A stretch of 64,000 nt of DNA from Candidatus Latescibacterota bacterium (GTDB taxonomy: Bacteria > Latescibacterota > UBA2968), in the NCBI GenBank assembly GCA_965205975.1, contig OZ242195.1, positions 864,001 through 928,000 on the forward strand, in the 5' to 3' direction. Positions within the stretch are counted from its first letter, which is position 1, and each line of letters begins with the position of its first letter. The notes below the pieces were generated by a model that was given only the letters and a program-made list of their open reading frames with translations, searched no databases and had not been told where the DNA came from. The position numbers were made by a program, and so were the translations under genes. Shown here in pieces: positions 35,196 through 64,000 of the stretch.

Positions 35196-37838
35196 ATGGC
35201 GACACAACTGACACCGGCGATGGAACAGTACGCGCGTTTTAAGGAGCAGCATCCGGATGCGATTTTGCTGTTTCGGATGGGCGATTTTTACGAGACGTTT
35301 TACGACGATGCCGTTGTTGCATCTCAGCTTTTGGGATTGACGTTGACATCGCGTAACAATGGGCGTGCAGATCGCATCCCACTGGCAGGTGTTCCGTATC
35401 ACGCGCTGGATACCTATCTCGCAAGGCTTATCAAAGCCGGTAAAAAAGTGGCGATTTGCGAGCAGATGGAGCCGCCGCAAAAGGGCAAAAAAGTGGTGCG
35501 CCGCGAGGTGGTGCAGGTTGTATCGCCGGGAACGGTAATGTCCGATGATTTGCTCGATCAAAAGCGCAATAATTATCTTGTGGGCATTTATGTTTCTGAC
35601 GATCAATTGGGCATGGCAACAGCGGATTTGTCAACGGGAATGTTCAGGGCATCGGAACGCGCGGCAGATGATTTGTGGGAGATATTGGAGCGCGTGGCTC
35701 CCGCAGAGGTGCTGGCGCCCGAGGCGTGGGTCAAAGACAACGAAGCCGAGTTTGAAGCGCGGATGCCGGGTGCTTTGCTCACGCATATAGAAGATTGGCA
35801 TTTTGGACAGCATTATGCGTACGATACACTGAAGGATCATTTCAAGGTGGCGTCTCTCAAGGGCTTTGGATGCGATGATCTCACCGTTGGGATATGCGCC
35901 GCGGGCGGGGTGCTGTGTTATTTGCGCGAAAATCAAAAGGGAGCCGTATCCCATATTACGCGATTGGCGCGCGAACACACCGAGTCGGTGATGGAATTGG
36001 ATCTGGTGACACAGCGCAATCTGGAACTGGTTACAACCATTCAAGAGGGGCGGCGCGAGGGTACGTTGTTTGGGGTTTTAGATCAGACGTGTACGCCGCA
36101 GGGCGCGCGGACACTGCGCACATGGCTATCACAACCGCTTGTGGATGTTGGTCGCATTGATGCGCGCTTAGATGCAGTACAAGAATTTGTCGAATCTGCG
36201 GCGTGTCGGGACGAGGCGCGAGAGGCGTTGCGCGGTGTTGGAGACATGGAGCGGTTGATGTCCCGAATTTGTTGCAATCGGGCCAATCCACGTGAGCTTG
36301 TGGCTCTCCAGCGGTCTCTGGAAGCAGTTGTTCCACTGCGAGAAACCCTGCGTGAATTTCGCGCTGATTTGCTGGTGCGGGCGCGGGATCAGGGCATGCC
36401 GGATCTGACAGAGTTGATTGATTTGATTGCCCACACGCTTGAAGACGATCCACCTGCGCAGATTAGCGATGGCGGATATATTAGAACGGGCTATCACAAG
36501 GAACTGGACGAGTTACGGGAAATCGCATCGGGCGGGCGCGATTGGGTTGCCAACTTGCAGGCAGATGAACGCGAGAAAACGGGTATTGCGTCGTTGAAGG
36601 TGGGGTATAACAAGGCATTTGGATACTATATTGAGGTCACCAAGGCCAATCAGGATAAGGTGCCCGCGTATTTTGTTCGGAAGCAAACGCTGGTCAATGC
36701 CGAGCGGTATATCACGCCGGAGTTGAAGGATTGGGAGGCGAAAATTTTGGGCGCAGATGAGCGGGCCAGGGATCTCGAGCGCGATTTGTTTGCCGCGTTG
36801 CGAGAAGAGGTAGCCGGTTGGGTGGAGCCCGTGCAGCGCACGGCGCTATCCGTGGCCACCGTAGATGTGTTGAGCACACTGGCCGAGGTGGCATCGTCCA
36901 ATGATTATGTGCGTCCCCAGGTGGATAATAGCGTGCGTATTGATGTGAAGGATGGGCGACATCCCGCGGTTGAGCAGTTGCTTCCGGGCGGGCAGTTTGT
37001 GCCCAATGATCTGACGATTGACGGCGAGAAAGATCAAATTTTGCTGATTACTGGCCCAAATATGTCGGGGAAATCGACGATTTTGCGCCAGACCGGGTTG
37101 ATTGCGCTTTTGGCGCAGGTCGGCAGTTTTGTGCCAGCGCGCGAGGCGCGTATTGGGGTGGTGGATCGCATTTTTACACGGGTGGGCGCATCCGATAATC
37201 TGGCGCGGGGCGAGAGTACGTTTTTGGTGGAGATGAATGAGGCGGCGAATATTTTGAATAATGCGACGCCGAAGAGTCTGGTGCTTTTGGACGAGATCGG
37301 GCGCGGGACGAGTACGTTTGACGGGTTGAGCATTGCCTGGGCTATGACGGAGTATTTGCACAATGCCGAACAGATTCAGCCGCGGACGTTGTTTGCAACG
37401 CATTATCACGAGTTGACAGAGTTGGAAGATTTGCTGCCGCGGGTGGTGAATTACAGCGTTGCTGTGCGCGAGGCGGGCGATACCATCGCGTTTTTACACA
37501 AGTTGGTGCCGGGCGGGTGCGATCACAGCTACGGCATTGAGGTGGCGCGTCTGGCCGGGATGCCAGCAGAGATGATTGCGCGGGCAAAGGAGATTTTGAA
37601 TCGGCTGGAGCAGAACGATCTGTCGGTGGGGTCAAAACCCCAACCCGATCGCGTGAGGGAGAATGGGCAGATGCCGCTGTTTGCGCCGGTAGAAGAAGTG
37701 AAGGTTGAGCGGGAAGATCACCCGATGCTGTCTGAGTTGCGCGATTTAGATATCACACATCTCACACCGGTTGAGGCGCTGGTAAAATTAGATGGGTGGA
37801 AGCGGGCGTTGATACAGGAATCACAACATGGCTCTTGA
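35196..37838 (+). CDS. mutS: DNA mismatch repair protein MutS
   Basis: TPAMEQY, FRMGDFYE, TGPNMSGKST, DEIGRGTST, ATHYHEL. Confidence 0.98.
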   Translation: MATQLTPAMEQYARFKEQHPDAILLFRMGDFYETFYDDAVVASQLLGLTLTSRNNGRADRIPLAGVPYHALDTYLARLIKAGKKVAICEQMEPPQKGKKVVRREVVQVVSPGTVMSDDLLDQKRNNYLVGIYVSDDQLGMATADLSTGMFRASERAADDLWEILERVAPAEVLAPEAWVKDNEAEFEARMPGALLTHIEDWHFGQHYAYDTLKDHFKVASLKGFGCDDLTVGICAAGGVLCYLRENQKGAVSHITRLAREHTESVMELDLVTQRNLELVTTIQEGRREGTLFGVLDQTCTPQGARTLRTWLSQPLVDVGRIDARLDAVQEFVESAACRDEAREALRGVGDMERLMSRICCNRANPRELVALQRSLEAVVPLRETLREFRADLLVRARDQGMPDLTELIDLIAHTLEDDPPAQISDGGYIRTGYHKELDELREIASGGRDWVANLQADEREKTGIASLKVGYNKAFGYYIEVTKANQDKVPAYFVRKQTLVNAERYITPELKDWEAKILGADERARDLERDLFAALREEVAGWVEPVQRTALSVATVDVLSTLAEVASSNDYVRPQVDNSVRIDVKDGRHPAVEQLLPGGQFVPNDLTIDGEKDQILLITGPNMSGKSTILRQTGLIALLAQVGSFVPAREARIGVVDRIFTRVGASDNLARGESTFLVEMNEAANILNNATPKSLVLLDEIGRGTSTFDGLSIAWAMTEYLHNAEQIQPRTLFATHYHELTELEDLLPRVVNYSVAVREAGDTIAFLHKLVPGGCDHSYGIEVARLAGMPAEMIARAKEILNRLEQNDLSVGSKPQPDRVRENGQMPLFAPVEEVKVEREDHPMLSELRDLDITHLTPVEALVKLDGWKRALIQESQHGS

Positions 37839-38178
37839 AACGAGAATGACCATACCCGACATTCACAAAAAAATTGAGGAAATGGCACAGCGTCTGGTTG
37901 AACAATTTAACCCAGATAAAATTGTCCTTTTTGGCTCTTATGCCAGAGGTGATGTGGGGATAGATAGCGATGTAGATTTGCTGGTGGTCAAACCCATTGT
38001 TGGCTCTAAGCGCGAAGCACGCATTGCCATGCGAATGGCCGTTAGGGGACTGGGGATCGCAAAAGATATTGTGTTGGCTACCCCTGAAGACATAGCAAAA
38101 TATCAAAATGTGGTTGGCACAGTCATTCGATCCGCGCTGAATGAGGGAAAGGTCTTGTATGAACGCGCCGAATCATAG
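37828..38178 (+). CDS. Minimal nucleotidyltransferase (MNT), TA component
   Basis: LFGSYARG...DSDVDLLVV. Confidence 0.92.
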   Translation: MALETRMTIPDIHKKIEEMAQRLVEQFNPDKIVLFGSYARGDVGIDSDVDLLVVKPIVGSKREARIAMRMAVRGLGIAKDIVLATPEDIAKYQNVVGTVIRSALNEGKVLYERAES

Positions 38179-38566
38179 TAAAGAGGTTGCAAAACAGTGG
38201 GTGGAAAAAGCAGAGGAGGATTTTCGCAATGCAGAATATACCCTCACGATGCCCCAAAATTGTCCCTATAGCACAGTCTGTTTTCATTGTCAACAGTGTG
38301 TAGAAAAATATATCAAAGCTATGTTGGTCTTACATGAGGTAGAATTTCCACGGATTCACGACATTGGCGAGTTGATCGGATTGCTGCCCGAAAATATGCC
38401 CTTATCACTTACGGACGAAGAACAAGAACGATTATCGGATTATGCAGTTATGGTTCGATATCCAATGGAGGTAGAACCAATTACTGAGTCTGATGCAAAG
38501 AGCGCACTTCTCATTACCAAACGCGTTCGAGCAGTTGCCCGACAATTGATGCAAAAGATATTTTGA
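38159..38566 (+). CDS. HEPN domain protein, TA component
   Basis: WVEKAEEDF, CFHCQQCVEKYIKA, RIHDI, RYP. Confidence 0.92.
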   Translation: MNAPNHSKEVAKQWVEKAEEDFRNAEYTLTMPQNCPYSTVCFHCQQCVEKYIKAMLVLHEVEFPRIHDIGELIGLLPENMPLSLTDEEQERLSDYAVMVRYPMEVEPITESDAKSALLITKRVRAVARQLMQKIF

Positions 38567-38599
38567 TACACATAACCGCCAAGAGAAATTTTTTTATAC

Positions 38600-38667
38600 T
38601 CACATATCTCACGTCTGTTGAGGCACTGGTAAAATTAGATGCGTGGAAGCGGGCGTTGGAAGAATGA
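38600..38667 (+). repeat. Displaced copy of the mutS 3' end
   Basis: 38600-38658 matches 37753-37811 at 53/59 nt and continues GAA GAA TGA (KRALEE*). Confidence 0.9.
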
Positions 38668-38683
38668 TCAGGAGATAGATGAA

Positions 38684-39187
38684 ATGGCAACTGTTGATTT
38701 GAGGACGGAAGCAAAACAGATTCTCGATAAGCTCTCCGATGAGAGTTTAGAGGTGGTAATCAGTTTGCTGAGTTCTCTCAAAAACCGAGAGTGCCCCAAA
38801 CGGACGGATCTGTTGTCAATCTATCCGTGGGTTCAGTATCTGTCCGATGCGGAATGCGATGAATTTTTCGAGGAACTCTCAAATGCCGCAAAGGACAATG
38901 GTACAGGTGTTGATGAAGTGGTCAACGCCTGGCGGGAGACAGCAGAAATCCTATCTGACCCTGACACGATGGCCGACATTGCCGAATCGGAAAAACAAAT
39001 TGCAGATAGCGAGAGTCGTCTGGAAAACACTGCGCCCGAGATTGATTGGCTTGATACCGAATACATGGAAAAGGCACGAACAGAAGCCGACGATTCAATT
39101 ACCCTCGGATTAGTGCGAAAAGCACTCGCCAAAATTCCAGGCTCAATGAGCGACTTCATCATCTCTGAGCGCGAGGATCGCGTTTAA
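38684..39187 (+). CDS. Putative antitoxin (possibly chimeric) upstream of VapC
   Basis: Acidic 167-aa protein with WRETAEILSDP and a C-terminal MSDFIISEREDR; coupled to the PIN toxin gene. Confidence 0.65.
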   Translation: MATVDLRTEAKQILDKLSDESLEVVISLLSSLKNRECPKRTDLLSIYPWVQYLSDAECDEFFEELSNAAKDNGTGVDEVVNAWRETAEILSDPDTMADIAESEKQIADSESRLENTAPEIDWLDTEYMEKARTEADDSITLGLVRKALAKIPGSMSDFIISEREDRV

Positions 39188-39654
39188 TGGTCGTGTACTA
39201 TCACGATACCAGTGCATTGGTGAAGCACTACCACGAGGAAATAGGCACGGCAGTTGTTGACCAGATTATATCCGTACCAAACAACAGCCACTACCTCTCC
39301 CGGCTTGCAGGTATCGAACTTCGGTCAGCTTCAGCAAAAAATGTCAGGATGGATCTCATCACAGTAGTAGATTTTCATAACTTGCATGGAAAGTTTCAGG
39401 CCGATATCAGGAATGGCCAGTTTCAGATTCTCCACTTGCTGTCGAGACACCTTCAGAAGGCTGAAAACCTGATTATACAACACGCGACCACGAACAGCTT
39501 ACGAACATTGGATGCCATTCAACTCGCTGTCGCCCTCGATTTTCATCAACGGCACAGACTCGATTTTTTTGTATGTGCCGACGCGAATCTGTGCATGGTT
39601 GCAATAGCTGAAGGTTTAGCTGTTATAAATCCAGTGACGCATACTCCTGAATAA
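39187..39654 (+). CDS. VapC-family PIN toxin
   Basis: YYHDTSALVKHY.EE.GT, LRTLDAIQLA.A, FVCAD. Confidence 0.92.
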   Translation: MVVYYHDTSALVKHYHEEIGTAVVDQIISVPNNSHYLSRLAGIELRSASAKNVRMDLITVVDFHNLHGKFQADIRNGQFQILHLLSRHLQKAENLIIQHATTNSLRTLDAIQLAVALDFHQRHRLDFFVCADANLCMVAIAEGLAVINPVTHTPE

Positions 39655-39700
39655 AGGGGATTATGTAGTTAAGTGACCAAAATTACCCTAAGAAAAAGAG

Positions 39701-39848
39701 GCATAGAGGACAAACCTGAGCTTAGGTACAGTATTTTTGTACCAAGGAGGGCGGTGTGCTACGTCTGGGCGAACTTTGGCGAGTCTCTCAGAGCAGTAGC
39801 ACACGGCAATCCGCCAGAACAACCACACAGAAAGAGGTCTTTCTATGC
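39701..39848 (+). ncRNA. Candidate structured RNA / antisense-controlled leader
   Basis: Nested stems: 39701-09/39840-48, 39725-30/39738-43, 39750-53/39812-15, 39754-62/39796-804, 39764-69/39787-92; apical loop UUGGCG. Confidence 0.5.
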
Positions 39849-40005
39849 ACAGATATTCATAGCGGATGAATGAGAGGAATGATGATGTTAAGTAAGGAGA
39901 TCAGTCCGAAAAAGGGGACTGCTAAGTAAAGAAACACAATGACCTGTGTCAAGAATTTTTTGCAAGGAGGAATGGTGTGAAAAAACATTATTGGATTTCT
40001 ATTAT

Positions 40006-41369
40006 CAATACTGTGAACAGTTTTAAGCGGCGCGTGCGCCATAATCCTTAAGGGATTGATATTCAGGTCGTTTTTTGATGCAAGTGTGCTCCAACCCGAA
40101 GATGCGAATAATTCGATTGAGATAATGTTGATTGAATGCCCTGATTTTCACACTGCCCATAGAGAAGCGATGCACGCCGTCCTTCTTTTTCGCGTTGAGG
40201 CATTCAGATTTGGCCAAATTTAAGGTGGTCAAAGACGCATTAAAATGAAAGTCGAGGCGTGCCTGATCCCGTGCTTGAGAATCGGCCAGACCTGTAAACT
40301 GTTTGGCATCGCGGAAGAGAAACTCTATTTGGAAGCGTGCTTTGTAATAGCGATAGACCTGCCAAGCATCGAGTGTCTCATCTGTAGAAAAGAGAATCAC
40401 ATAGCAGGGTGTTTCGCCTTCTGCTTGTTTGAGCAGGACAACGACTTTGAGATTGCGGTTAAATGAGATATGGTTGAGCAGCCCGCTATAAAGGGTCAGG
40501 TCATCCTCTTGGCCTACAAAGTCAAATCGGGACAGGTCTTGCCAATTGACCTTGCCATCATAAGTTTTCTGTCGTCCTCTGCCTGGTCTTTTGGGTCCTT
40601 TGTATAAATAGCGACAGTTGGCATCACATCGCAGTTTGCCTACAATATCCTTGTTCAAGGCGGTGATGCCGTCAATAAAATCGGCATTGGCAAAGCTGCC
40701 ATCCACGACGATATAGTGTTCACACGCAGCCAAATGGGGTGCCACCTTGCCGATATGGTCAAGATATTGTTGCATTCTTGTCGTATGCACATCTTTGTCC
40801 TTACCATGAGCCTCTTGACCCTTTCTTTTGGCTTCTTCTTGCGAGAGGGTCTGTTCGACAGACAAGGTCAGTGCCGTATGCTTTTTTATATCTACGACGG
40901 CTAACGCTGAAATTTCTAACCCTTTTTGTGCCTTTGAAGCACATCCGTTCCAAAACGCATCGCGTGAGAAGGTGTGCTTGCCTGCTTTTTTGATGAAACT
41001 GGGATCAAAGGCCAGGATGCGGTCACTTTCTTCTCCAAAGGTTTCATCAATCACCTGCCGATTAAATCGGATAAAGTCAAATGGCTTAGCAAAGTTGCGA
41101 GAATAGGTATGCTCACACAAATCACTATACCGACTCATATTGCGAAAGTTGATCTTCCCGCGTGTGACGAGAATCGTTGTAAAAAGGGTCAACAGAAATT
41201 TCTTTTGCGGTTTGGATATTTTTATGCGATTGAGTATCTTTATTGCCAGTTCCATTGTGCCGTCTCTCCAGATGTGGGGTATCTTTGACTTGGGCGTTTA
41301 AGACACCTTAAATCTGCGTGAACGGCACTTTTTTGTCAAAACTTCTATCTTTTTTTGTTCACAGTATTG
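40006..41369 (-). mobile_element. Complete IS, ISH3/IS4/IS701-like, 1364 bp
   Basis: 14-bp terminal inverted repeats CAATACTGTGAACA/TGTTCACAGTATTG; 5-bp target duplication ATTAT (40001-05, 41370-74). Confidence 0.92.
40023..41255 (-). CDS. DDE transposase
   Basis: AFDPSFI, VVDGSF, YKARFQIEFLFRDAKQ (YREK-like) motifs. Confidence 0.93.
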   Translation of the reverse strand: MELAIKILNRIKISKPQKKFLLTLFTTILVTRGKINFRNMSRYSDLCEHTYSRNFAKPFDFIRFNRQVIDETFGEESDRILAFDPSFIKKAGKHTFSRDAFWNGCASKAQKGLEISALAVVDIKKHTALTLSVEQTLSQEEAKRKGQEAHGKDKDVHTTRMQQYLDHIGKVAPHLAACEHYIVVDGSFANADFIDGITALNKDIVGKLRCDANCRYLYKGPKRPGRGRQKTYDGKVNWQDLSRFDFVGQEDDLTLYSGLLNHISFNRNLKVVVLLKQAEGETPCYVILFSTDETLDAWQVYRYYKARFQIEFLFRDAKQFTGLADSQARDQARLDFHFNASLTTLNLAKSECLNAKKKDGVHRFSMGSVKIRAFNQHYLNRIIRIFGLEHTCIKKRPEYQSLKDYGARAA

Positions 41370-41916
41370 ATTATTGGAGTTCTGGGCTTACTGGTTGCAT
41401 TTGGTCTGGGGGCCACAATAAGGCTTCCATTAAATACTGAAGCAAAAGAAGACCGCCCGACACAAAAGCCTCTATTGGACACCTCGTTACAAACAACTCC
41501 TTCAGGGTGCTGGGAGCCTGCAAAAGGAGAACAGGTTTGTGCGGAAGCTATTTGGAGATTTACAGGCCACAAGGAACACTCTGCTGTCGTGATAGTGAGC
41601 GGGACATATAAAGTGAATTGGGAGAACAGATCAACAAGACAATGGGCCGTGCGTTTTGAGCTTAAATTTTATGATAAGTATGGGTTTGAAATTTCATCAT
41701 TTCCGCCACCAAACACCAATAATTTCCCCCGCGATATTGATAAAGATTTCCAGTTTAAAATCAATCCCAACTCCCAACAAACAAAGGCAAAAGGTTTTTA
41801 TCTTCGGTTATCTAACCTGGAAGAGGCCAGCTCTATTTCTGAAATGAAAATTTTTGGGAGAGTATATTCGCCAAAGTGGGATCGTTGAAATGGAAATGAT
41901 ACATAATACACCAACT

Positions 41917-42072: not shown

Positions 42073-42106
42073 GACAACTTACCTCCGGTGCGTAATGTTA
42101 TTCTCT

Positions 42107-42138
42107 GAAGTCCGCGTCTCCAGAAAGACGCGGACTTC
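42107..42138. other. Perfect 13-bp hairpin
   Basis: GAAGTCCGCGTCT-CCAGAA-AGACGCGGACTTC followed by GCTTTTT. Confidence 0.7.
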
Positions 42139-42149
42139 GCTTTTTGTGC

Positions 42150-42165: not shown

Positions 42166-42180
42166 AAAACAGGTCACAAG

Positions 42181-42357
42181 TCAATATTCCTCAATGGAAT
42201 ATGACGAAACAAAATCATCATACATCAGCCTTTTTCCTTCAAAACCTTGCACAATCACTTTCATCTGCTCAATAGTGTCGTGGGGTCGGATATCCTGCCT
42301 CATTACGAACTCATTGACGTAGAGTTGCAAGTGTTTCTTGCTCATCTTGCGGTACCT
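42181..42357 (-). pseudogene. C-terminal relic of an IS1595-family transposase
   Basis: YRKMSKKHLQLYVNEFVMRQDIRPHDTIEQMKVIVQGFEGKRLMYDDF, typical IS1595 'S.KHL..Y..EF..R' and 'GKRL.Y' tail. Confidence 0.8.
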
Positions 42358-42442
42358 GAAAGTCGCTCCGCAATGCGGAGCGTTTTGAAAAGGTTCGGTA
42401 AAATTGTCGTATATTGCGTATAAAAAAAGGGACCGGCCCCCC

Positions 42443-42565
42443 TTAAAATTTTACTGCATCAAATCTGTCTGTCCTCGGCACAGGCTTGTCTGCGTATCCG
42501 TGCAAAAGGTCTTTGAGAAATTGTGCTGTAATCGCATAGACATCGTGATCGAGAAATAACCTCAT
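42443..42565 (-). pseudogene. Truncated DUF5615 PIN-like toxin
   Basis: ATGA-coupled to DUF433; MRLFLDHDVYAITAQFLKDL then diverges and stops after 40 aa. Confidence 0.65.
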
Positions 42566-42807
42566 CGCGCCTCTGAAATATGAATATCTCCCACCTGCAC
42601 TAAGTTAATCGCATAATGGATACAAGCGCGAATGTCGTCTTCTTGAAGGTCAGGAAAATAATCAGAGAGGATCGTCTTAAACGAGATTCCCTCACGCACC
42701 AATTCGAGAACATCAACCACGGGGATCCGGGTTCCTGCTACACAAGGCTTACCAAAATGAATTTGGGGATCAACCGCAATCCTACCTCGATAATTTCCAT
42801 TTTCCAT
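42562..42807 (-). CDS. DUF433 antitoxin
   Basis: DPQIHFGKPCVAGTRIPV, YFPDL.EDDIRAC..YA. Confidence 0.92.
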   Translation of the reverse strand: MENGNYRGRIAVDPQIHFGKPCVAGTRIPVVDVLELVREGISFKTILSDYFPDLQEDDIRACIHYAINLVQVGDIHISEAR

Positions 42808-42858
42808 ATCGCTTAGACTCCAATTTAACGATGCACGATGAATAATATTTCAACCAGG

Positions 42859-42887
42859 AAAGTACCGTATAAAAAGAAAAAAGTCAA
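42859..42887 (-). promoter_or_regulatory. Sigma70-type promoter of the DUF433 cassette
   Basis: Minus strand TTGACT-17 nt-TACTTT. Confidence 0.5.
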
Positions 42888-42966
42888 TTTTCTCGCCAAG
42901 GCAGATAGGGGTAGGCGGTAGAACAGGGATAGAGATAAAAATTTCAGTGACTATTCACTTCAGTGA

Positions 42967-43184
42967 CTATTCACTACTAATCCCGTGTTCGTCGAGCCAG
43001 GTTTTGAGGGGAACGTCTTCGGGAGTGGGGAGGTGTAGCCGCGACCACCGGAGTAGCTGACGCCGAGGAGTTGTTTTTGGATGGGCGTGCAGTGGTCGAG
43101 ATAGTGTTCAACTCGCATGTCGTCGCGGGGGCGAAGCCAGTGGTAGGAGTAGCCGTAGAAGAGGACGCGGCGGGGGTCTTGCCA
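42967..43184 (-). repeat. Copy R3 of the PhyH gene 3' end (218 bp, 1-bp deletion)
   Basis: Matches 46415-46633; WQDPRRVLFYGYSYHWLRPRDD...; 16-bp tandem duplication at the stop (42943-42974). Confidence 0.95.
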
Positions 43185-43248
43185 GATGCCATGAATTTTC
43201 AGCGATGGCGGATCAACTTTGCACATTATGTTGTGCCTGTCTGTCCTG

Positions 43249-43611
43249 CTACGGAGATGCAATCAGCGGTTCTATCTCCCGCTCAATTTGGCGACGTACC
43301 GTGTGCTCGGCGACATCGAGATCGTAGCGGGTCTGAAGATTGATCCAGAACTCAGGCGTCATGCCAAAGTAGTGACCAAGGCGTAGCGCGGTATCGATTG
43401 TAATTCCATTAATTCCATGCACGATAGCGTCTAAGTCCTCCTCCGAAACTTTGATCCCCTGAGCAAGGCGAGCCACACTGAGATTCATCGGAATAAGGAA
43501 CTCATCGCGCAGGATTTCACCAGGATGTACCGGAGATAGTAGCTGTCCGGTTGTGACTTCCGAGAAGTCAACTTTTCGCCGGTCCAGTTCTTCGCGTTTA
43601 ACGGTCATCAT
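43249..43611 (-). CDS. HigA/VapI-family antitoxin (orphan)
   Basis: PVHPGEILRDEFL, TALRLGHYFG.TPEFWINLQ.RYDL; no adjacent HigB. Confidence 0.92.
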   Translation of the reverse strand: MMTVKREELDRRKVDFSEVTTGQLLSPVHPGEILRDEFLIPMNLSVARLAQGIKVSEEDLDAIVHGINGITIDTALRLGHYFGMTPEFWINLQTRYDLDVAEHTVRRQIEREIEPLIASP

Positions 43612-43624
43612 TTATCTCCTCAAA

Positions 43625-43682
43625 CTATTCACTACTAATCCCGTGTTCTTCGAGCCAGGCTTTGAGAGACACGTCTTCGGGA
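43625..43682 (-). repeat. Copy R2 of the PhyH gene 3' end (58 bp)
   Basis: Matches 46415-46472; encodes PEDVSLKAWLEEHGISSE*. Confidence 0.92.
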
Positions 43683-43718: not shown

Positions 43719-45275
43719 TCATGCAAGAGCTGTCTCGAACCCTATCAGATTGCGGGTCTCGCGGCTGAACTCTACCCCGATCATAAAAATCGGCTCGCCC
43801 AAGTCGCGGTATTTGTCCGCATAGCCCTTTGCCTGCAATTGCGCCATTGCAGACCCTTCCGGTGCCAATTCCACCACTTTGAACTCGAACAGATACACAG
43901 TGTCGTTGAAACGAACCACCATGTCCAGACGCCCATCGCTGCCACTGTCTTCCACAACGATGTCGAATCCCACCGATGCGAAGTAGGAGTAGAACACGCT
44001 GGCATAGTAGCCTTCGTAGTTCGCTATATCATTGTTTGTGTGCCACTGATAGGGAATGCTGGCGAAAAACGCCTTGAACAGGCTTTCCAGGCCAGCGAAG
44101 TCATTGACCAGCAGCAGGTCATACAGACGGGCGCGATGCTCCGTGCGCTGTGAGGGATCGCCAGTCAGGTGATTTAGCAGGCTCCTGTTCAAGCTCTGAC
44201 GCACTTCCCGATTCGGATAGGATAGCCGATAATACATCTCGCCACCGCGCGGTTCGGTTTGGATAATCGTGAGATAGCCGGTCTGGAACAGCAGGGCTTC
44301 GGTGGCGATGTGGTCAACATCAAAAGCCGACAGCAAATCATCACTGCCCAGCATGTTGTCCAGCGCCAGCGCACCGACCCCGCGCGATAGTAGCGTCTCG
44401 ATCAGAAATGTAGGCGTGCCGGTCTCAAACCAGTAGGCTTCGAAGCTCTGCCTTCTGAACAGCAGGAGGATGTCGAAGGGGTTATAGACCTTCTCCTGTC
44501 CCCGCCAGCTATAGCCATTGTACCAGTCGCGGATCTCATCCCTGTCCAGACCCGGCAGTTCCGGTGCGAACACCGTGTCGAGGTCCTCCTCGGTGTAGCC
44601 GCAGATGGCGGAATATTGTGGATCAATGGTGATGTCTGTAAGATTGTTGAGGCCAGAGAACAGGCTGACTTTGGAGAATTTGCTGACGCCCGTGAGGAAT
44701 GTGAATTTGATATAGGCATCACTGGACTTGATGGTTGAATACAGACCGCGCAGAAAATCGCGGTTGGCGCGTGCGACCTCTGGCACCTCAAGCGCGTCCA
44801 GAATCGGCTTGTCGTATTCATCAACAAGCACGACAACACGCTGTCCAGCACAATCGTGCAATGCCTCAATCAGTGAGGCAAAACGCCCCGGTGCTGTCAC
44901 GGCCTCTGTAACCACTCCAGAGCGGTTTTCAATGGCGGTCAGTTGCTCCATCACATTTGCCTGCAAGTAGTCAGGCTCTTTGAAATTGCCGCTGCCAAAA
45001 TCGAGTCGCACAACGGGATAGCGAACAGACCAGTCCCAGTGGTCATGGATATGAAGCCCCTCAAACAGCGGTTCATTGCCCTCGAACAGTTCCTTCAGTG
45101 TGTCCAGAAACAGGCTTTTGCCAAAGCGACGTGGACGCGATAAAAAGTAGTGTGTGCCCTCGTCTATCAGTCGCCGCATGTGGACCGTTTTATCGACATA
45201 GTAGCAGTTTTCCTCCCGAATTTTACGGAAGGTCTGAACGCCGATAGGCAGCTTGCATCTGTCTGATATGCCCAT
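43719..45275 (-). CDS. AAA-ATPase-like protein with C-terminal PD-(D/E)XK nuclease (DUF1703 type)
   Basis: LPIGVQTF, YVDKT, SRPRRFGKSL, DEYDKP, SGLNNL, GRLD...FEFK. Confidence 0.93.
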   Translation of the reverse strand: MGISDRCKLPIGVQTFRKIREENCYYVDKTVHMRRLIDEGTHYFLSRPRRFGKSLFLDTLKELFEGNEPLFEGLHIHDHWDWSVRYPVVRLDFGSGNFKEPDYLQANVMEQLTAIENRSGVVTEAVTAPGRFASLIEALHDCAGQRVVVLVDEYDKPILDALEVPEVARANRDFLRGLYSTIKSSDAYIKFTFLTGVSKFSKVSLFSGLNNLTDITIDPQYSAICGYTEEDLDTVFAPELPGLDRDEIRDWYNGYSWRGQEKVYNPFDILLLFRRQSFEAYWFETGTPTFLIETLLSRGVGALALDNMLGSDDLLSAFDVDHIATEALLFQTGYLTIIQTEPRGGEMYYRLSYPNREVRQSLNRSLLNHLTGDPSQRTEHRARLYDLLLVNDFAGLESLFKAFFASIPYQWHTNNDIANYEGYYASVFYSYFASVGFDIVVEDSGSDGRLDMVVRFNDTVYLFEFKVVELAPEGSAMAQLQAKGYADKYRDLGEPIFMIGVEFSRETRNLIGFETALA

Positions 45276-45390
45276 CTCTCATCTCCAGATTGTGATGTCA
45301 GTGCCGCCGGTTGATCAATAACCGACTTGATTGATGCAAACATGCCTGCCTATTCGAATCCACAGCATTGCACTTAAAAATTTTTAGTGA

Positions 45391-45609
45391 CTATTCACCA
45401 CTGATCCCGTGTTCGTCGAGCCAGGTTTTGAGGGGCGCGTCTTCGGGGGTGGGGGAGGTATAGCCGCGTCCACCGGAGTAGCTGACGCCGAGGAGTTGTT
45501 TTTGGATGGGTGTGCAGCAGTCGAGATAGTGTTCAACTCGCATGTCGTCGCGGGGGCGAAGCCAGCGGTAAGAGTAGCCGTAGAAGAGGACGCGGCGGGG
45601 TTCTTTCCA
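45391..45609 (-). repeat. Copy R1 of the PhyH gene 3' end (219 bp)
   Basis: 200/219 nt identical to 46415-46633 by manual alignment; open frame WKEPRR...HGISGE*. Confidence 0.97.
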
Positions 45610-45652: not shown

Positions 45653-45991
45653 TCACTGATGCCGTATCTGAATTGTCCAAATTCCAGACGGCAAACTATC
45701 CCAAGCCATAACGCTACTGGCGACAAATTCGGCTTTCACTGAATCTGGCACATCGCTGTGAATACGAAACAAGATGACGCCGTGAGGGGCGGACATACCG
45801 TCACGATGCACAAGGTCTCCAAAGTCCTTATCATACGTTATCAGCGCACGTCTTTCCCGCGTTGCCAATTCCAGCAGGTTGGGGTCTGCTTCGCCCCGGT
45901 CCGTTTCCTTCGTCCATCGCACATCCTGGCCTGCAGCACGTAGCCGGACAACGACCTGCTCCGATATATTTTCGTCGGCAAGTATTCTCAT
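45653..45991 (-). CDS. DUF5615 PIN-like toxin
   Basis: MRILADENI, LITYDKDFGDL, GVILFR. Confidence 0.9.
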   Translation of the reverse strand: MRILADENISEQVVVRLRAAGQDVRWTKETDRGEADPNLLELATRERRALITYDKDFGDLVHRDGMSAPHGVILFRIHSDVPDSVKAEFVASSVMAWDSLPSGIWTIQIRHQ

Positions 45992-46261
45992 CTACCGTTT
46001 GCCATCCATAATCGCATCAATATCCTCCCAAGTCACATTGGACAGCTTTGCACCAGTAGCGGCGTATTTTCGACAGGCTCGGATATCCTCCGGGGTGATG
46101 TGCGAGTACATACGAATGATATCGGCTTCACTGCGCCCCCCGTCCAGCAATTCCATGATCAGTTCCACCGAAATCCGAGTGCCTTTTATTGTTGGTTTCC
46201 CGGCCAGTATCAACGGGTCAGTGACAATGCGATTCTGCCAGATTGGATTCTTATTTATCAT
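45992..46261 (-). CDS. DUF433 antitoxin
   Basis: DPLILAGKPTIKGTRISVE, EDIRAC..YA. Confidence 0.92.
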   Translation of the reverse strand: MINKNPIWQNRIVTDPLILAGKPTIKGTRISVELIMELLDGGRSEADIIRMYSHITPEDIRACRKYAATGAKLSNVTWEDIDAIMDGKR

Positions 46262-46344
46262 AACGTGTCTCCTCCTTTAGACTCTGGTCTCTGCAACCTC
46301 ATTACCTACCCGGAGTCTGTAAAAAAGTTCCAGGTGACAAAGAC

Positions 46345-46373
46345 AGTATATTCAGTTCTGCATGTTTTGTCAA
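46345..46373 (-). promoter_or_regulatory. Sigma70-type promoter of the DUF433/DUF5615 cassette
   Basis: Minus strand TTGACA-17 nt-TATACT. Confidence 0.75.
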
Positions 46374-46414: not shown

Positions 46415-47260
46415 CTATTCACTACTGATCCCGTGTTCTTCAAGCCAGGCTTTGAGGGGCGCGTCTTCGGGAGTGGGGGAGGTGTAGCCTCGACCACCGG
46501 AGTAGCTGACGCCGAGGAGTTGTTTTTGAATGGGCGTGCAGCGGTCGAGATAGTGTTCTACCTGCATGTCGTCGCGGGGGCGAAGCCAGCGATAGGAGTA
46601 GCCGTAGAAGAGTACGCGGCGAGGTTCCTTCCAGTAGTTGGTACTGGCGGAGTGCCATAAGCGGCGGTCAAAAAACACGGCTGATCCAGGGGGTACGAGC
46701 ACCGGGATAGCGTCTTTGTGTAGCGCGTTGCGGTCTTCTCCGGGAAATGTGTTTTGCGTTTGGCTCTTGGGAAGGACGTAGAAATTGCCGCGGCCCTGCT
46801 CAGTCGTGTCGGTAAGAAAAAAGCCGATTTTGAGGGAGATCATGGGACGCGGGTTCATGTCAAAATCCTGATTGATGCGGCCGCTGTCTTGATGGAAGCC
46901 GAGTCCGGGTCCGTCTTTTTCGAATGTTTTGTGCGGTTCTGCAGGGGGTGTCACGGTCATGTGGGTGTGGTAGAGTTGGATGTGCCAGCCCAGGATGCCC
47001 CACACTTTGGGGAATGTTTTGTACCAGTCGAGCAAGGGCAAAAAGTGGTCGTCTTTGCCTATGAAGTCGTAGTGGTTGATGCGCGCTGTGGCACTTTTGC
47101 CCATCCGAGCGCGTTCTTCTTTATCCACGCGATCTACTGCGGCGACGAGATCGCTGACCATATCGGGTGGTAGGGCATCTGGAACGATGAAATAGCCATC
47201 TCGTTTGAATTTGCGCGCTTCTTCTTCTGTCAGACAATAATCGAGACATTTGGGGTGCAT
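46415..47260 (-). CDS. Phytanoyl-CoA dioxygenase (PhyH) family Fe(II)/2OG enzyme
   Basis: RDGYFIV, FHQD, GSAVFFDRRLWH...N...R motifs. Confidence 0.9.
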   Translation of the reverse strand: MHPKCLDYCLTEEEARKFKRDGYFIVPDALPPDMVSDLVAAVDRVDKEERARMGKSATARINHYDFIGKDDHFLPLLDWYKTFPKVWGILGWHIQLYHTHMTVTPPAEPHKTFEKDGPGLGFHQDSGRINQDFDMNPRPMISLKIGFFLTDTTEQGRGNFYVLPKSQTQNTFPGEDRNALHKDAIPVLVPPGSAVFFDRRLWHSASTNYWKEPRRVLFYGYSYRWLRPRDDMQVEHYLDRCTPIQKQLLGVSYSGGRGYTSPTPEDAPLKAWLEEHGISSE

Positions 47261-56731: not shown

Positions 56732-56745
56732 GAGAATCCTTCCTC

Positions 56746-58657: not shown

Positions 58658-58765
58658 TTTTTACCTCGCTGTGTTGTCGTTATTTTAAGGGGTGCAGAAA
58701 CTGCTGTGCGAATGTATCACAGTTTTTGTCAATTAGCAAATGAATCGGTCACGGTAGCGCTGCCA

Positions 58766-60076: not shown

Positions 60077-60078
60077 GG

Positions 60079-61431
60079 TTAATCTTGTCCTTTTTTAAAA
60101 CGCAAATTTTTGACCCGGTTTCCCGTCAGTCTGAATCCTGTAACTTGTCCCGTATCGTCTCGCGTAAAATAAACTTCTGGGAAAAACCACGCATCTCCGA
60201 CGAAATGGCCGTCGGCACAGGTTAGGGATATGTCGTCATGTCGCCTGTGTTGCGCCACAAGCCGGTCTCCTTGCACACCAATGGTATAGGTCGTATCGAG
60301 TTCTTCAGTGTAATAATCGCCTTCGAATTCTGACAACTGTTCTGGCGATAGGGGTTCGGCTTCGTTGCTTTCAGAGGGTTGCTTATCCGGCTCGGGTGCT
60401 TCGGGCGCAAGGACATCAGCGAGATAGAGATCAGCGATCTTTTTCGCCAAATTAAGCGGATTAAAGGTCTCCAGATTGCACAATATGACAATGCCAAATT
60501 TCTGAGCCGGAAAACGTATGAGATGGCTGCGAAATCCCCGCCATGATCCGCCGTGTCCGGCCGTTTTCAGTGCTCTGTACTCGCCGATGTCCAATCCAAA
60601 GGCGTAACTGATCTGTTTCCCATTATTGAGAACCCCTCGCTGATGCATCTGCTCAACCACTACCTGTCCACCTACCCGTGTATTATCAAAGTTCAGAACC
60701 CACTTTGCCAGATCTTCTACCGTTGAATGGAGAGAACTCGAACCGAGGGCGGTTAAATTGTTCACTGCATTCTTGAATCCATTATCTTTCACGGACAAAT
60801 AGGAATACGCCCGGTTTTTCACAATCATCTCGTGGTCATCGTGAAAGTGGGTGTTGGTCATGGCGAGGGGCTTAAAGATGTTGGCATTCGTCCATTCGCG
60901 AAATGAATCTCCCGTTATTTTTTCGACGATTTCTGCCAGCAGATTATACCCCGTATTTGAGTATAAGAACGCTGTTCCAGGCTCGAAATTGAGTTCTTTC
61001 TGACGCCTTACCATTTTCAAAATATGCTTAAACGAAATCACGTCATCCATCTCTCCGCCCGCGATGACGAGTGCCTGTACCCAATCCCGCAAGCCACTCG
61101 TGTGATGCACCAGATGTCGAATCGTTATTTTTTTTCCAAAATCCGGGACATCGGGCAAGTGCGTCCGAATGTCGTCATCCAGCGAGAGTTTCCCTTCGTG
61201 CAACAACGTGGCGATGGCAAAGCCCGCAAATTGCTTGGAGACCGAAGCAATGTCGAAGATGGTTGTCGGCGCAATCGGGATGTCGTATTCCAGATTCGCC
61301 ATACCGTATCCGCATTTGTAGATAATTTCACCGTCTCTGATAACCGACAGAGCCGCGCCAGGGGAATCTGGCTTGTCCCATTCCGCGAATACCTGATCAA
61401 CTTTTGCCTCAAGTGACTCGTGATTTGTCAT
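60079..61431 (-). CDS. Serine hydrolase, beta-lactamase family
   Basis: ASVSKQF, YSNTGY, HGGS. Confidence 0.92.
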   Translation of the reverse strand: MTNHESLEAKVDQVFAEWDKPDSPGAALSVIRDGEIIYKCGYGMANLEYDIPIAPTTIFDIASVSKQFAGFAIATLLHEGKLSLDDDIRTHLPDVPDFGKKITIRHLVHHTSGLRDWVQALVIAGGEMDDVISFKHILKMVRRQKELNFEPGTAFLYSNTGYNLLAEIVEKITGDSFREWTNANIFKPLAMTNTHFHDDHEMIVKNRAYSYLSVKDNGFKNAVNNLTALGSSSLHSTVEDLAKWVLNFDNTRVGGQVVVEQMHQRGVLNNGKQISYAFGLDIGEYRALKTAGHGGSWRGFRSHLIRFPAQKFGIVILCNLETFNPLNLAKKIADLYLADVLAPEAPEPDKQPSESNEAEPLSPEQLSEFEGDYYTEELDTTYTIGVQGDRLVAQHRRHDDISLTCADGHFVGDAWFFPEVYFTRDDTGQVTGFRLTGNRVKNLRFKKGQD

Positions 61432-61544
61432 TGGTCACCTTCTATTGCCAAATTTTTCGCAAGGCCACTGAAGGGGCCCTTTACGGCGAAGTCCTTAAAG
61501 GGAAAACATAAAGTGCATACCATAGATATTTGTCTTTTTCAGAT

Positions 61545-62558
61545 TTATAAACGCAGGATTTTCAGGAAAAGTTCATCTGCTCCTTTGATTTCTCGGAAAT
61601 AGGGATGCTTACTTTTTAATGAAAGTAAATTCGCATAGGCTCGAAACAGCCACTCACCCTCAATTTTTTCAAAGAGCTTGTAATGAATTCCATTCGAGAC
61701 AATGAAAAAACAGCAAGTTGGATAGTTTTGTAAATAATCCTTTGCCTGATCGGGAGCATACCGAAGTCCATCGTATAGCCGTTTAGTTTCGAGGATTATT
61801 ACAGGATTCTCTTGTTCTGATGGAAACGGACTCTCAAAGATCGAAATATCAATTTTCTTCCACTCTATTCTGATTCTCTGTTCAGGAAACCCCAATGCAA
61901 TCAGGAGTGGGACTATTAGAAATGTCCTAATCTCATGCTCTCCAAATTCCCTATTCTGAGAGACGTACCACTTTGCCAGTCTACGAATTTTCCAAATCGT
62001 CTTTGTGATTATGTCAACATCGTTCCCGGATAAGCCATTGACCATTAAAAGGTCAATCAGTTGTTCGGCTTCTAAATCCTCAACTAACTCCGGAATTCGT
62101 TCTGATTGTACAGCTACACCATTTTCCCATATATTTTGCGCTTCATTCCTTGGAGTTTGCTTCTTGACTTGAAACAACGTACCTTGTCTCAAACCAGAGA
62201 TTATTGTCGAATCAGCAGGCCGTTTCCACTTTACTTCCCTACAATGTTGAAGAGCCCATCCATCAACCTCTTCGAATACTTCTGTATGGAAATAATCTGA
62301 TCTAACTTTCCCTACTGCCACAATTTTCCACTGTTTTCCACATGCCCTTTTCAAAATCACCAAATCCCCAGTCTGCATGTCTTCCATGAACCACCTATAG
62401 AATTGTCTATAATCGCAGTGGGATTTATCATCATAAATATCTCGATTTTCAAAATAATCTCCGTGAGAACCAGGGCCAACAAGTATGACTCCAAATCTCA
62501 AAAATACGTCAGAATATTCTCTATTTCCATCACCAGCGGCGATTTGCCAAATGTTCAT
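61545..62558 (-). CDS. Putative restriction nuclease: N-terminal PUA/EVE-like domain + HsdR-N-type PD-(D/E)XK domain
   Basis: NIWQIAAG...MQTGDLVIL...AVGKV; EHEIRTFLIVPLL.ALG...ID...ETK...QA..Y...VSNG; AT-rich. Confidence 0.7.
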   Translation of the reverse strand: MNIWQIAAGDGNREYSDVFLRFGVILVGPGSHGDYFENRDIYDDKSHCDYRQFYRWFMEDMQTGDLVILKRACGKQWKIVAVGKVRSDYFHTEVFEEVDGWALQHCREVKWKRPADSTIISGLRQGTLFQVKKQTPRNEAQNIWENGVAVQSERIPELVEDLEAEQLIDLLMVNGLSGNDVDIITKTIWKIRRLAKWYVSQNREFGEHEIRTFLIVPLLIALGFPEQRIRIEWKKIDISIFESPFPSEQENPVIILETKRLYDGLRYAPDQAKDYLQNYPTCCFFIVSNGIHYKLFEKIEGEWLFRAYANLLSLKSKHPYFREIKGADELFLKILRL

Positions 62559-62585
62559 TTTGTCACATCCTAAATTAATATTCCC

Positions 62586-62813
62586 TCAAACAGATTCTGA
62601 TGCATATTTGGCTTTGCGAGGCAGTTCGACGAGGATGAAATAGGATGCGGGATATAAGTAGTCTTCCTGTGATTCATCTACGACTCTCAAATATCCCTCT
62701 TGCGCTGCTTCTTCGTCGGGCAGAATCTGGTATATCTTCCGCTTCTCCAGATCGTCGCAATCTCTGTTCTCGATACACAGCGCGAATTGAGATTTTGATA
62801 GGTTCTCTTTCAT
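62586..62813 (-). CDS. Small acidic hypothetical protein, putative antitoxin/immunity protein
   Basis: FALCIEN...LEKRKIY...GYLRVVDES.EDYLYP..YF; directly downstream of a basic toxin-like pseudogene. Confidence 0.7.
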   Translation of the reverse strand: MKENLSKSQFALCIENRDCDDLEKRKIYQILPDEEAAQEGYLRVVDESQEDYLYPASYFILVELPRKAKYASESV

Positions 62814-62816
62814 TTT

Positions 62817-62976
62817 TACCACTCCATGAATCGTTTGATTTTCATCTTTCTTCGACCAATTCCATGCACCTCATACCAATGGTCCTCTGCCCGTCGGATA
62901 CTGCTATTGCTGAGGCGAATACGGGCAATACCTTTGAGTTTTCGTCACCGGCCAGATCATATTGCCTACGAAGCCG
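62817..62976 (-). pseudogene. Degraded small basic toxin-like gene (5' deleted, frameshift and stop)
   Basis: RLRRQY/GR*RKLKGIARIRLSNSSIRRAEDHWYEVHGIGRRKMKIKRFMEW*. Confidence 0.65.
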
Positions 62977-63053
62977 ACATCATTGATTACACCTCGATTT
63001 GAGCCGGTTTTGGAACCCTAGCGATAGGTCTTGGAGGTCGGCACATATCGGCC
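62968..63053 (-). repeat. Displaced copy of part of the 3' region of the beta-lactamase-like gene
   Basis: 81/86 nt identical to 63752-63837; TGG->TAG nonsense change. Confidence 0.93.
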
Positions 63054-63316
63054 TAACTCGCAACTGATTTCCCTCGTATGTGCTCAATTAAACGAACATT
63101 CACCAGGGTTTCGATCGATACGCCTTGTGCTTGGGCACTCTGCCAGAGTTCTTCTGCTATTTCAGGGAGTATCGCAACGCGAACTGCTCGCTTGTGTGGC
63201 GTATCAAAGCGAAACCATTCTCCATCATCTTCCATAAAATCAGCCGTATCCAGTTGATCCCAAAATGTAGCTTCCTCTTCATAACTCTCGAATTTTGGGA
63301 CTTTTAACTCTTTCAT
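63053..63316 (-). CDS. BrnA/CopG-like antitoxin
   Basis: PKFESYEEEATFWD..DTAD; RHH-like C-terminus; coupled to BrnT. Confidence 0.85.
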   Translation of the reverse strand: MKELKVPKFESYEEEATFWDQLDTADFMEDDGEWFRFDTPHKRAVRVAILPEIAEELWQSAQAQGVSIETLVNVRLIEHIRGKSVAS

Positions 63317-63585
63317 TTTCTCAGCCTCCTGAAGTTTTGTTTTTCACGGTCGGTCATATCTCGAGCGGTAATGGGCTTATAGACTGTACCGCTAAGATGT
63401 TCCAAGACGACAAATAGATACCGCCCATCCGCTGTCTGTCCATAAAGCCGATACCGGTTACGTCCTTGACGACGAGCTAAATGTAATGGATCCCCACAAA
63501 CTTCCCAGACTTCATCTGGTTCCACATTGTGTTGAGCAATATGTTCAATTCGATAGTCGTCCCAAGCTAATCTGCTAATATACAT
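63313..63585 (-). CDS. BrnT-family ribonuclease toxin
   Basis: WD...EHIAQHNV...EV.EV, GQT..GRYLFVV, ITARDMT.RE. Confidence 0.9.
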   Translation of the reverse strand: MYISRLAWDDYRIEHIAQHNVEPDEVWEVCGDPLHLARRQGRNRYRLYGQTADGRYLFVVLEHLSGTVYKPITARDMTDREKQNFRRLRK

Positions 63586-63627
63586 GTATCACTCGTGATT
63601 TTTTTATTTTATTTGAAACTGTTAGTC

Positions 63628-64000
63628 CTATATCACGCCCGTCACTTGCATCGCGGCCCTGGCAATCTCGGAGAGTGCGCATTCGCCGGTGACGCGATCG
63701 CCGAGTTCCCGGCTGTAGAGAGCAATCACCATCGTTCCTACCGGGGATTCGACGAAGCCGACATCATTGATTACACCCCGATTCGAGCCGGTTTTGGAAC
63801 CCCATCGATAGGTTTTGGAGGTCGGCACATATCGGCCGATGCGGCGACCGTTCTGTTGTAGGGTCAAGGTGGTGAGCATGGCCTGACAGGCTGCGGGGGA
63901 TGCGGCCTGGTCGTCGAGAATCGTCTTGACGACGGTAGTGTAGTCATTGGGTGTAGCCCAATTTTCCTGTTCTCCTTCAATCGCGAGACGCCCGCGCATG
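63628..64000 (-). CDS. Class A beta-lactamase-like serine hydrolase (5' part outside the window)
   Basis: ENWATP, GSKTGS, NDVGFV. Confidence 0.85.
   Translation of the reverse strand, partial: MRGRLAIEGEQENWATPNDYTTVVKTILDDQAASPAACQAMLTTLTLQQNGRRIGRYVPTSKTYRWGSKTGSNRGVINDVGFVESPVGTMVIALYSRELGDRVTGECALSEIARAAMQVTGVI

Follow-up and report, generated by a model that had tools for sequence, protein, structure and literature searches.

Integrons, e14 in icd and islands at tRNA genes add DNA either by ordered stacking or by regenerating their target and displacing a fragment of it. A similar layout, examined here, occurs in a stretch of 64,000 nucleotides from a Candidatus Latescibacterota bacterium (the window; G000:C1:864001-928000, where G000 is the source genome, of 5.56 Mb in a single contig, other G numbers are relatives and X numbers are sequencing runs). 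In this window, mutS, a gene for a PhyH-family dioxygenase (phyH) and a class A beta-lactamase-like gene (bla) are followed by toxin–antitoxin (TA) or defence cassettes and then by a displaced copy of part of the gene, its tail. We consider these loci, with a probability of about two in three, to be integrase-free hotspots of gene gain, fed by homologous recombination between strains in two steps: a rare illegitimate joint and then a RecA-type reuse of the tail. The order of the blocks, the allelic nature of the tails, the recombination between tails and genes and the absence of a motif at the tail starts are the observations that carry this reading.

Several described systems come close. Furuta, Abe and Kobayashi (2010, PMC2853133, citing Nobusato 2000) reported restriction–modification (RM) genes that had inserted without a mobile element and had duplicated a long target of variable length, mostly in competent species and with duplications often spanning a start or stop site. 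The present loci resemble these inserts of less than 20 kb, with variable direct repeats above 30 bp, empty sites and no mobility gene, the repeats often spanning the stop codon while the gene stays intact. Repeats exceed 30 bp at phyH, mutS and bla (two 24-bp mutS cases fall below this threshold), the units measure 0.6-12.4 kb, and empty sites are found in G010 and G032 between mutS and phyH and in six genomes at bla. In contrast to the RM cargo and near-identical repeats of that study (43-47 of 45-47 bp in its Table 2), the cargo is here mostly of TA type, the repeats are allelic at about 90% identity and up to 265 bp long, and events are stacked; the units of the window hold TA or AAA-nuclease genes rather than R and M genes together.

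Displacement by excision and single crossover was proposed for rhs genes (Jackson 2009, PMC2935791), and homology-facilitated illegitimate recombination (HFIR) for the effector–immunity arrays of type VI secretion systems, with an analogy to integrons (Kirchberger 2017, PMC5361080). As in these arrays, gene fragments of variable length lie downstream of an intact gene, the new module comes first, the older ones are shifted back and no integrase is present, an order seen here for 10 of the 12 phyH tails identified. In the rhs and secretion systems, however, what is displaced is a working toxin tip, and the host product changes, whereas here the host genes encode MutS, PhyH, a beta-lactamase-like protein, a sulfatase and a phosphodiesterase, the tail is passive and the cargo has no relation to its host.

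In E. coli, linear DNA with a lacZ 3' arm gave RecA-dependent duplications of gene ends of 109-950 bp by trimming and ligation (PMC3240628), at very low frequency in a laboratory plasmid system where true HFIR gave deletions, not duplications. Duplication of the 3' part of a gene around foreign DNA is common to that system and the present loci; HFIR involves 3-10 bp of microhomology and a deletion in the recipient; the two primary-looking joints of the present loci have 0-4 nt and a duplication. The minimal mobile elements of Neisseria exchange variable cargo between conserved genes by homologous recombination in the flanks; this is replacement, and displaced gene tails or additive stacking are not mentioned in the accessible text (PMC3787668). 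Duplication driven by transformation, through alternative pairing of repeats, is described in PMC3784515, and TA, RM and CRISPR systems of sponge Latescibacterota in PMC12993501, where the accessible text does not describe the tail architecture. A literature search mostly outside subscription journals found no paper on TA cassettes stacked on the tails of core genes.

Unlike integrons, e14 or tRNA islands, these loci show no IntI, no attC-like site, no fixed crossover and no element-borne integrase, although erosion could hide a fixed primary start. The integron-like arrays of the original prediction, a note made on this DNA from its sequence alone, thus stand as an analogy of order only. We are dealing with a variant of a known recombination scar, which resembles rhs displacement and long-target-duplication insertion while departing from them in host or cargo, and not with an integron. 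Ordinary exchange of DNA between strains, rather than an enzyme dedicated to insertion, most likely made the scar. Many defence and TA genes reside in hotspots without a mobile element, where they accumulate instead of replacing each other. Since this scar is known from RM and rhs loci, the value of the present ones lies not in a new element but in a suggested test and in comparative resolution: they offer a readable record of empty sites, both block orders and shared junctions leading into different alleles.

The repeats and the mutS–phyH interval

The five repeats that had been predicted were all confirmed at their predicted positions. Within the window, mutS 37753-37811 matches 38600-38658 (59 bp, 90% identity); phyH 46412-46633 matches 45388-45609 (222 bp, 91%), and the phyH end matches 43624-43682 (59 bp, 92%) and 42964-43185 (223 bp, 91%); bla 63752-63837 matches 62968-63053 (86 bp, 94%). 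By genome-wide BLAST, the mutS and bla pieces each occur at two places in the genome, and the phyH tail at four local places with one 64-bp match of 81% elsewhere. The claim of three genes with the same layout holds for the existence of the repeats, but the genes form two hotspots, mutS and phyH converging on one variable interval. Similarly, the 86-bp bla repeat is genuine but is an internal piece that stops 124 nt before the stop codon, not a 3' end.

Sequencing runs containing the window sequence include sponge metagenomes. The mutS tail is crossed exactly by contigs of X1 (37722-38719), X3 (37698-38740), X5 (38531-38719) and X6 (38447-38781), four runs of three studies, among which X1 and X3 may be source data. 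The 59-bp phyH tail (tail 2) is crossed by an exact X5 contig and the start of tail 1 by an X1 contig; no contig bridging tail 3 was found among the pieces listed, and a joint at 42398-43185 (X1, X3) touching the edge of tail 3 was not used, with a side of 30 nt and intervening DNA unknown. Identical junctions recur in separately assembled genomes. The exact contigs and the recurrent junctions speak against an assembly artefact, and the repeats are confirmed to be real.

The interval and its host genes are composed as follows (window coordinates):

35196..37838, + strand, mutS, host gene 1 (Pfam MutS I-V); it ends within the first bases of MNT, and the repeat match ends 27 nt before the present stop, at the divergence point of two end types
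37828..38566, + strand, MNT-HEPN pair, first cassette behind mutS (PF01909/PF18765, PF05168), with the nucleotidyltransferase (MNT) at 37828-38178 and HEPN at 38159-38566; MNT is directly behind mutS also in G008 and G009
38600..38667, + strand, displaced mutS tail (the 59-bp match and the LEE-stop end type)
38684..39654, + strand, VapBC-like pair (PF01850), a 167-amino-acid (aa) gene, putative antitoxin from its position, and a PIN toxin at 39187-39654
40002..41374, - strand, IS701-like insertion sequence (IS), transposase at 40023-41255 (PF13546/PF01609; NF049999 below cut-off); a second copy, 99.7% identical, lies at G000:4547323-4548695
41355..41888, + strand, 177-aa gene of no known family (no Pfam or PADLOC match)
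42443..42807, - strand, DUF433 gene (42562-42807; PF04255) and truncated DUF5615 partner
42964..43185, - strand, displaced phyH tail 3, gene nt ~627 to stop (91%)
43249..43611, - strand, higA antitoxin without upstream higB (TIGR02607, 102 bits against a cut-off of 47.7)
43624..43682, - strand, displaced phyH tail 2, gene nt 789 to stop (92%); its junction with the AAA gene is found also in G016
43719..45275, - strand, AAA-ATPase / PD-(D/E)XK nuclease gene (PF09820 and PF08011), directly behind intact phyH in G009 and G006
45388..45609, - strand, displaced phyH tail 1, gene nt 628 to stop (91%); 15 of 19 differences at codon position 3, and 4 nt of microhomology at its joint against the G012 continuation
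45653..46373, - strand, DUF433/DUF5615 pair, first cassette behind phyH (PF04255, PF18480), as in G003 (97%); a sigma-70-like promoter match at 46345-46373 has 11 of 12 consensus positions
46415..47260, - strand, PhyH-family dioxygenase, host gene 2 (PF05721); orthologues in 14 relatives are 94-98% identical

The IS701-like element is a separate insertion outside the five gene-to-tail units, and promoter and terminator counts were not above those of shuffled sequence. The cargo names given beforehand were all recovered: NT and HEPN, PIN, DUF433 twice, DUF5615, AAA with PD-(D/E)XK, HigA, BrnT beside a CopG-type antitoxin, and HSDR_N as a weak match. As pairs they hold in part, since the second DUF433 has only a 40-codon DUF5615 stub and no HigB lies upstream of higA. 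In G008, the DUF433/DUF5615 pair stands behind intact phyH with a full 122-aa DUF5615 partner. Beside the truncated stub of the window is a short transposase-like remnant (42181-42409) without family match, which we take, by its motif, to be of IS1595 type.

Gain and loss among relatives

Of 21 genomes of the genus, 16 have an analysable syntenic mutS–phyH interval; G007 (genes on different contigs), G001, G017 and G018 (mutS absent from the 20 kb retrieved) and G011 (no close phyH orthologue) were left out. The interval extends from 63 bp (G010) and 69 bp (G032) up to 12.3 kb (G002). These first two are empty, nine carry a tail of either gene and five carry cargo without a tail. Eight genomes have phyH tails, 12 in all, and five have mutS tails, the lengths being 59-265 bp for phyH, 24-86 bp for mutS and 86-209 bp for bla. 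The presence–absence variation and empty sites expected in relatives are therefore found at mutS–phyH, and also at bla.

The DNA behind a tail is often the DNA that stands behind the intact gene elsewhere. In G000, phyH tail 1 with the AAA gene matches the intact end with AAA of G009 over 1922 bp (94%) and of G006 over 1882 bp (85%), and tail 3 with DUF433 matches the intact phyH end with the first cassette of G016 (673 bp, 84%) and also of G008. From the mutS tail end through VapBC, the DNA is that found directly behind intact mutS in G002 (1074 bp, 86%). As judged by eye on 70 nt, the flank next to 10 of the 12 phyH tails is one that another genome has behind its intact gene, and in five cases it is the terminator-like hairpin of the empty site; of the remaining two, one is cut short beside an IS and the other leads into the higA flank, for which no match was seen. 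The equivalence of tail plus next block with intact end plus first block accordingly supports the original proposal that units were added serially behind the gene and displaced its older end downstream.

Annotation of 58 of the 129 cluster representatives of the relatives' cargo revealed type III RM, a TIR-domain gene, ankyrin proteins and a decarboxylase as well, so that the cargo is not TA alone. The pattern is lineage-wide at the five loci compared. Behind mutS of G008 (L026), the start of HEPN is fused in frame to a VapB-like gene by a deletion across the position of the mutS tail of G000. Within the phyH arrays of G016 (L029:7790-8030) and G005 (L032), a fragment of the 3' end of an unrelated multi-copy 1267-aa gene precedes the AAA nuclease, oriented as it is at G000:2845771. 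Cassette genes common to several hotspots seem to let blocks move from one to another.

The bla hotspot

At the end of the window, the second hotspot consists of the following:

60079..61431, - strand, serine hydrolase, conserved distal flank (PF00144), within ~20 bp behind bla in 6 of 14 bla-bearing genomes
61545..62558, - strand, restriction-like gene (weak HSDR_N, PF13588 E 4e-4; no PADLOC match)
62586..62813, - strand, 75-aa gene, 91% copy of a 77-aa gene upstream of bla (215 bp at 90.7%; no family match)
62968..63053, - strand, truncated displaced bla tail, gene nt 583-668; in G006 and G012 the junction runs to the stop codon
63053..63585, - strand, BrnT toxin and CopG/BrnA-type antitoxin (PF04365, PF12441)
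63628..64000, - strand, class A beta-lactamase-like gene, host gene 3, continuing to 64419 past the window (PF13354; NF033103 below cut-off)

Sixteen bla regions were compared: two lack bla, six are empty, three have a tail, four have cargo without a tail and one is at a contig break. The BrnTA cassette and its junction are common to G000, G006 and G012 (94-96%) and, because the tail starts in all three at nt 583 behind this same cassette, it has a single origin. The truncation in G000 joins a G014-type cassette across a 6-nt shared word. Between G006 and G012, the tails have one difference in the first 60 nt and 19 in the next 144 (Fisher p 0.009), mostly at polymorphic sites, and the BrnTA cassette differs at 19 of 540. 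This concentration of distal differences implies that the distal tail recombined with different intact ends.

The 75-77-aa family (window 62586-62813; L001:4443-4676; L071:14737) has five genomic copies, of which at least three belong to TA clusters, and no Pfam or NCBIfam match; it is a candidate for an uncharacterised TA component. Past the window end, a type II RM pair (L001:5137-6776) lies between a GFO dehydrogenase gene and a 72-bp remnant of the bla 3' end.

Tails as alleles

In a neutrally decaying self-duplicate, changes are expected to be even across codon positions. On gapped alignments, the 12 phyH tails show 144 differences from their own gene, 23 at the first, 20 at the second and 101 at the third codon position; other intact alleles contain 103 of the 144 variant bases. 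The three bla tails give a similar picture (17 of 27 differences at position 3, 20 of 27 in other intact alleles). The third-position excess at phyH upholds the view that the tails carry an allele of the gene's 3' end and not a decayed self-copy. On these sequence comparisons, the tails are diverged functional alleles exchanged between lineages, in a direction that could be either way, because a later exchange of alleles at the intact end gives the same picture.

Two types of mutS end exist, each both intact and displaced: B then A in G000, A then B in G002, G003 and G006. The LEE/LED-stop type is the intact end in 12 of the 16 genomes and the displaced one in G000. The mutS body of G000 is G016-like to about -185 (before nt 2616) and then similar to G008, which shares the MNT cassette; with a breakpoint chosen after the fact, informative sites are 12:0 for G016 upstream and 8:2 for G008 downstream. 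This switch is located ~125 nt upstream of the tail start. At three loci, the same cassette junction leads into a different distal tail or different downstream DNA (bla in G006/G012, mutS in G002/G014, phosphodiesterase and CRISPR-Cas in G000/G032), and therefore tails do recombine with intact gene ends.

Self-duplication would offer another origin: a gene and its cassette duplicated in tandem within one chromosome, the spare gene was trimmed to a tail, and alleles were later exchanged at the intact end. In G000 and G007, a whole bla indeed lies behind a block found elsewhere behind bla, and G000 has kept the 72-bp remnant of the bla 3' end upstream, at its original position; whole-gene duplication with later deletion therefore also occurs. 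The bracketing of bla by the 215-bp gene duplicate and the visible erosion of the tails are consistent with it too. As a general explanation it is nevertheless unlikely, for the differences are mostly third-position and common to other intact alleles, the blocks behind the tails are the first cassettes of other genomes rather than second copies of the own first cassette, and 5' remnants are three times rarer genome-wide than 3'-downstream ones.

Nucleases, recombinases and tail starts

Insertion could also be driven by nucleases, if breaks made by restriction or AAA/PD-(D/E)XK enzymes led to target-duplicating repair and the TA genes rode along. Double-strand breaks were suggested for RM genes in PMC2853133, and type II and III RM, HNH and NucS genes are found within the arrays. 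Moreover, seven of the nine full-length AAA/PD-(D/E)XK genes of G000 are spanned by a direct repeat of 47-301 bp within 6 kb, a count without matched control. We hold this to be improbable: several tail-bounded cassettes contain RNase-type TA genes alone (BrnTA, MNT-HEPN, DUF433/DUF5615), the distance of the spanning repeat from the nuclease gene varies, and in G009 the AAA gene lies behind phyH without a tail. In sponge runs, contig depth over the window copy of the AAA/PD-(D/E)XK gene is several times that of its neighbours.

The phyH tails start at nt 582, 627, 628, 655, 661, 667, 691, 703, 711, 743, 789 and 790. Thirteen tail starts in five genes share no word (mean 4.96 versus 5.05 for random positions). 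In the two cases where the uninterrupted cassette is known, the primary-looking joints have the 0-4 nt of microhomology given above; others are plainly later deletions.

The genome has five tyrosine recombinase genes, far from the window, and one fragment; none of its six PF00589 matches is inside, in agreement with the reported absence of an integrase, and no mobility gene lies between gene and tail in the five window units. Genome searches gave no TIGR02249 (IntI) match over the cut-off (best 88 of 265 bits), no PF00239 serine resolvase and no LigD C-terminal domain; no classical end-joining ligase is therefore available as a circulariser. Among the 58 of 129 cargo representatives scanned, no integrase-like open reading frame was seen, IS transposases aside. 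The R''/R' core pair, sought on both strands of both arrays by a simple pattern and no covariance model, was not found. At G000:C1:2820227-2824268 (L065), YhcG and AAA/PD-(D/E)XK genes stand behind a 316-aa tyrosine recombinase gene, and after them comes a 261-bp copy of the recombinase gene's own 3' end.

A site-specific recombinase acting in trans, or decayed integrative elements of the e14/icd or tRNA-island type, would explain a geometry equivalent to attL/attR with a replacement 3' end, and could call on the tyrosine recombinases of the genome, on cassette junctions constant across genomes and on two G000 phyH tails starting at ~627 and 628. With at least seven distinct phyH starts over nt 582-790 and three at mutS, no common motif in the five genes, and neither integron integrase nor serine resolvase nor cargo-borne integrase in the searches just described, this explanation, which the original prediction had included in its e14-like form, is quite improbable and not supported. 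An assembly chimera of co-occurring strains, to which runs with many related strains and a contamination of 4.1% by marker count might point, is hardly credible with the mutS tail crossed exactly in four runs of three studies, the 59-bp phyH tail crossed in another study and identical junctions in separately assembled genomes.

A proposed two-step mechanism

We return to recombination between strains in two steps. In the first, the 3' part of the gene and the neighbouring cassette of one lineage would be joined illegitimately, with 0-4 nt of microhomology, into the interior of the gene. The DNA might be trimmed, ligated to itself and taken up through a single crossover by RecA, or two haplotypes might be joined and the spare copy of the gene deleted afterwards; the product would be gene, new cassette, stranded tail and old downstream DNA. 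In the second step, of which the pattern is observed and RecA the presumed enzyme, the tail would act as a second homology arm. A donor made of gene body, cassette and tail would pair with both sides of the recipient gene and add its cassette in front, with nothing deleted; a circle looped out between gene and tail would give the same product. Later deletions would erode tails and cassettes, and ordinary double-crossover replacement would also swap cargo, scar-free.

Both the dependence on RecA and the source of the DNA are what we infer from this pattern. A linear donor is favoured only by the mutS tract starting ~125 nt upstream of the tail, which tail erosion could also explain, and sliding identity at phyH gave no separation of circular from linear donors. 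TA and defence genes probably dominate since they are small, self-promoted, abundant and hard to lose. More tentatively, stranded tails may serve repeatedly as homology arms, so that a hotspot of replacement becomes one of addition with plain linear DNA and RecA. The corresponding rule, that gene body and tail used as two arms lead to additive insertion, is testable. If true, it would provide a general enzyme-free counterpart of integrons, building defence islands (TA, RM, 10-kb CRISPR-Cas) behind ordinary genes.

A number of points weigh against the two-step reading. Arms of 24-60 nt at ~90% identity are poor substrates for RecA. Among the sampled intact alleles, none stands out as the nearest to any phyH tail, which prevents the pairing of donors with recipients, and by sliding identity the genomes sharing a first cassette have no clear long identical tract in phyH. 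Five of the 14 cargo-bearing mutS–phyH intervals lack any tail; tails are scars of some events and no obligatory part of a cassette. The phyH tail of G003 is a deletion form of that of G016, and G002 and G005 share a lost start codon downstream, yet their phyH tails start at 582 and 661. The variation in starts is thus partly secondary and overstates the number of events, and a longer common primary start is conceivable.

Nor was any intermediate or ongoing event seen, none of the 15 listed joints (of 58, contigs only) being a tail-to-tail excision. From the predicted model of excision and single crossover, the serial addition is retained and the circular intermediate is without such a joint. 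Finally, recA, an 806-aa comEC and two dprA-like genes are present in the genome, but comEC, dprA and recA occur also in 10-14 of 14 control genomes, so they do not show competence.

Gene-end copies across the genome

The scan, made in windows along the genome, covered 3417 genes of at least 200 codons, with copies sought within 15 kb and dispersed repeats and copies inside other large genes removed. A copy of the 3' end lies downstream of 27 genes, including the three of the window, compared with 10 for 3' copies upstream, 8 and 8 for 5' copies and 0 for the far control (binomial p 4e-5), which is a genome-wide excess of 3'-downstream copies. In ten of the 27, TA or defence genes occupy the interval from gene to copy, whereas 2000 random sets gave 1.3 on average and 7 at most, a contrast inflated by seeds taken from these same loci. 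Roughly half of the 27 belong to paralogue families or consist of short local repeats, with no defence cargo. Eight of 21 multi-gene TA clusters touch a gene-to-copy interval; most do not. The g2541 locus, considered as a clean single-host case, was rejected as a dispersed multi-copy fragment.

The two further host genes compared in relatives also vary. The sulfatase junction is common to G000 and G031 (2 of 11 genomes); an initial search for the sulfatase failed to detect its short tail in G000 itself, so counts from such searches are too low. The phosphodiesterase tail is present in 3 of 11 genomes (G000, G032 and G008). At G000:C1:3436599-3449075 (L071), a CRISPR-Cas system (cas3, cas1, array; 10-12 kb) lies between the phosphodiesterase gene and a 70-bp stranded tail, and G032 (L087) has the same system and junction with different DNA behind the tail.

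Elsewhere in the window, a short tandem repeat block with 12- and 18-bp units occupies 25427-25522, and a low-complexity coding repeat rich in Glu, Ala and Val is found at 32811-33002, upstream of a radical-SAM (UPF0004/TRAM) gene.

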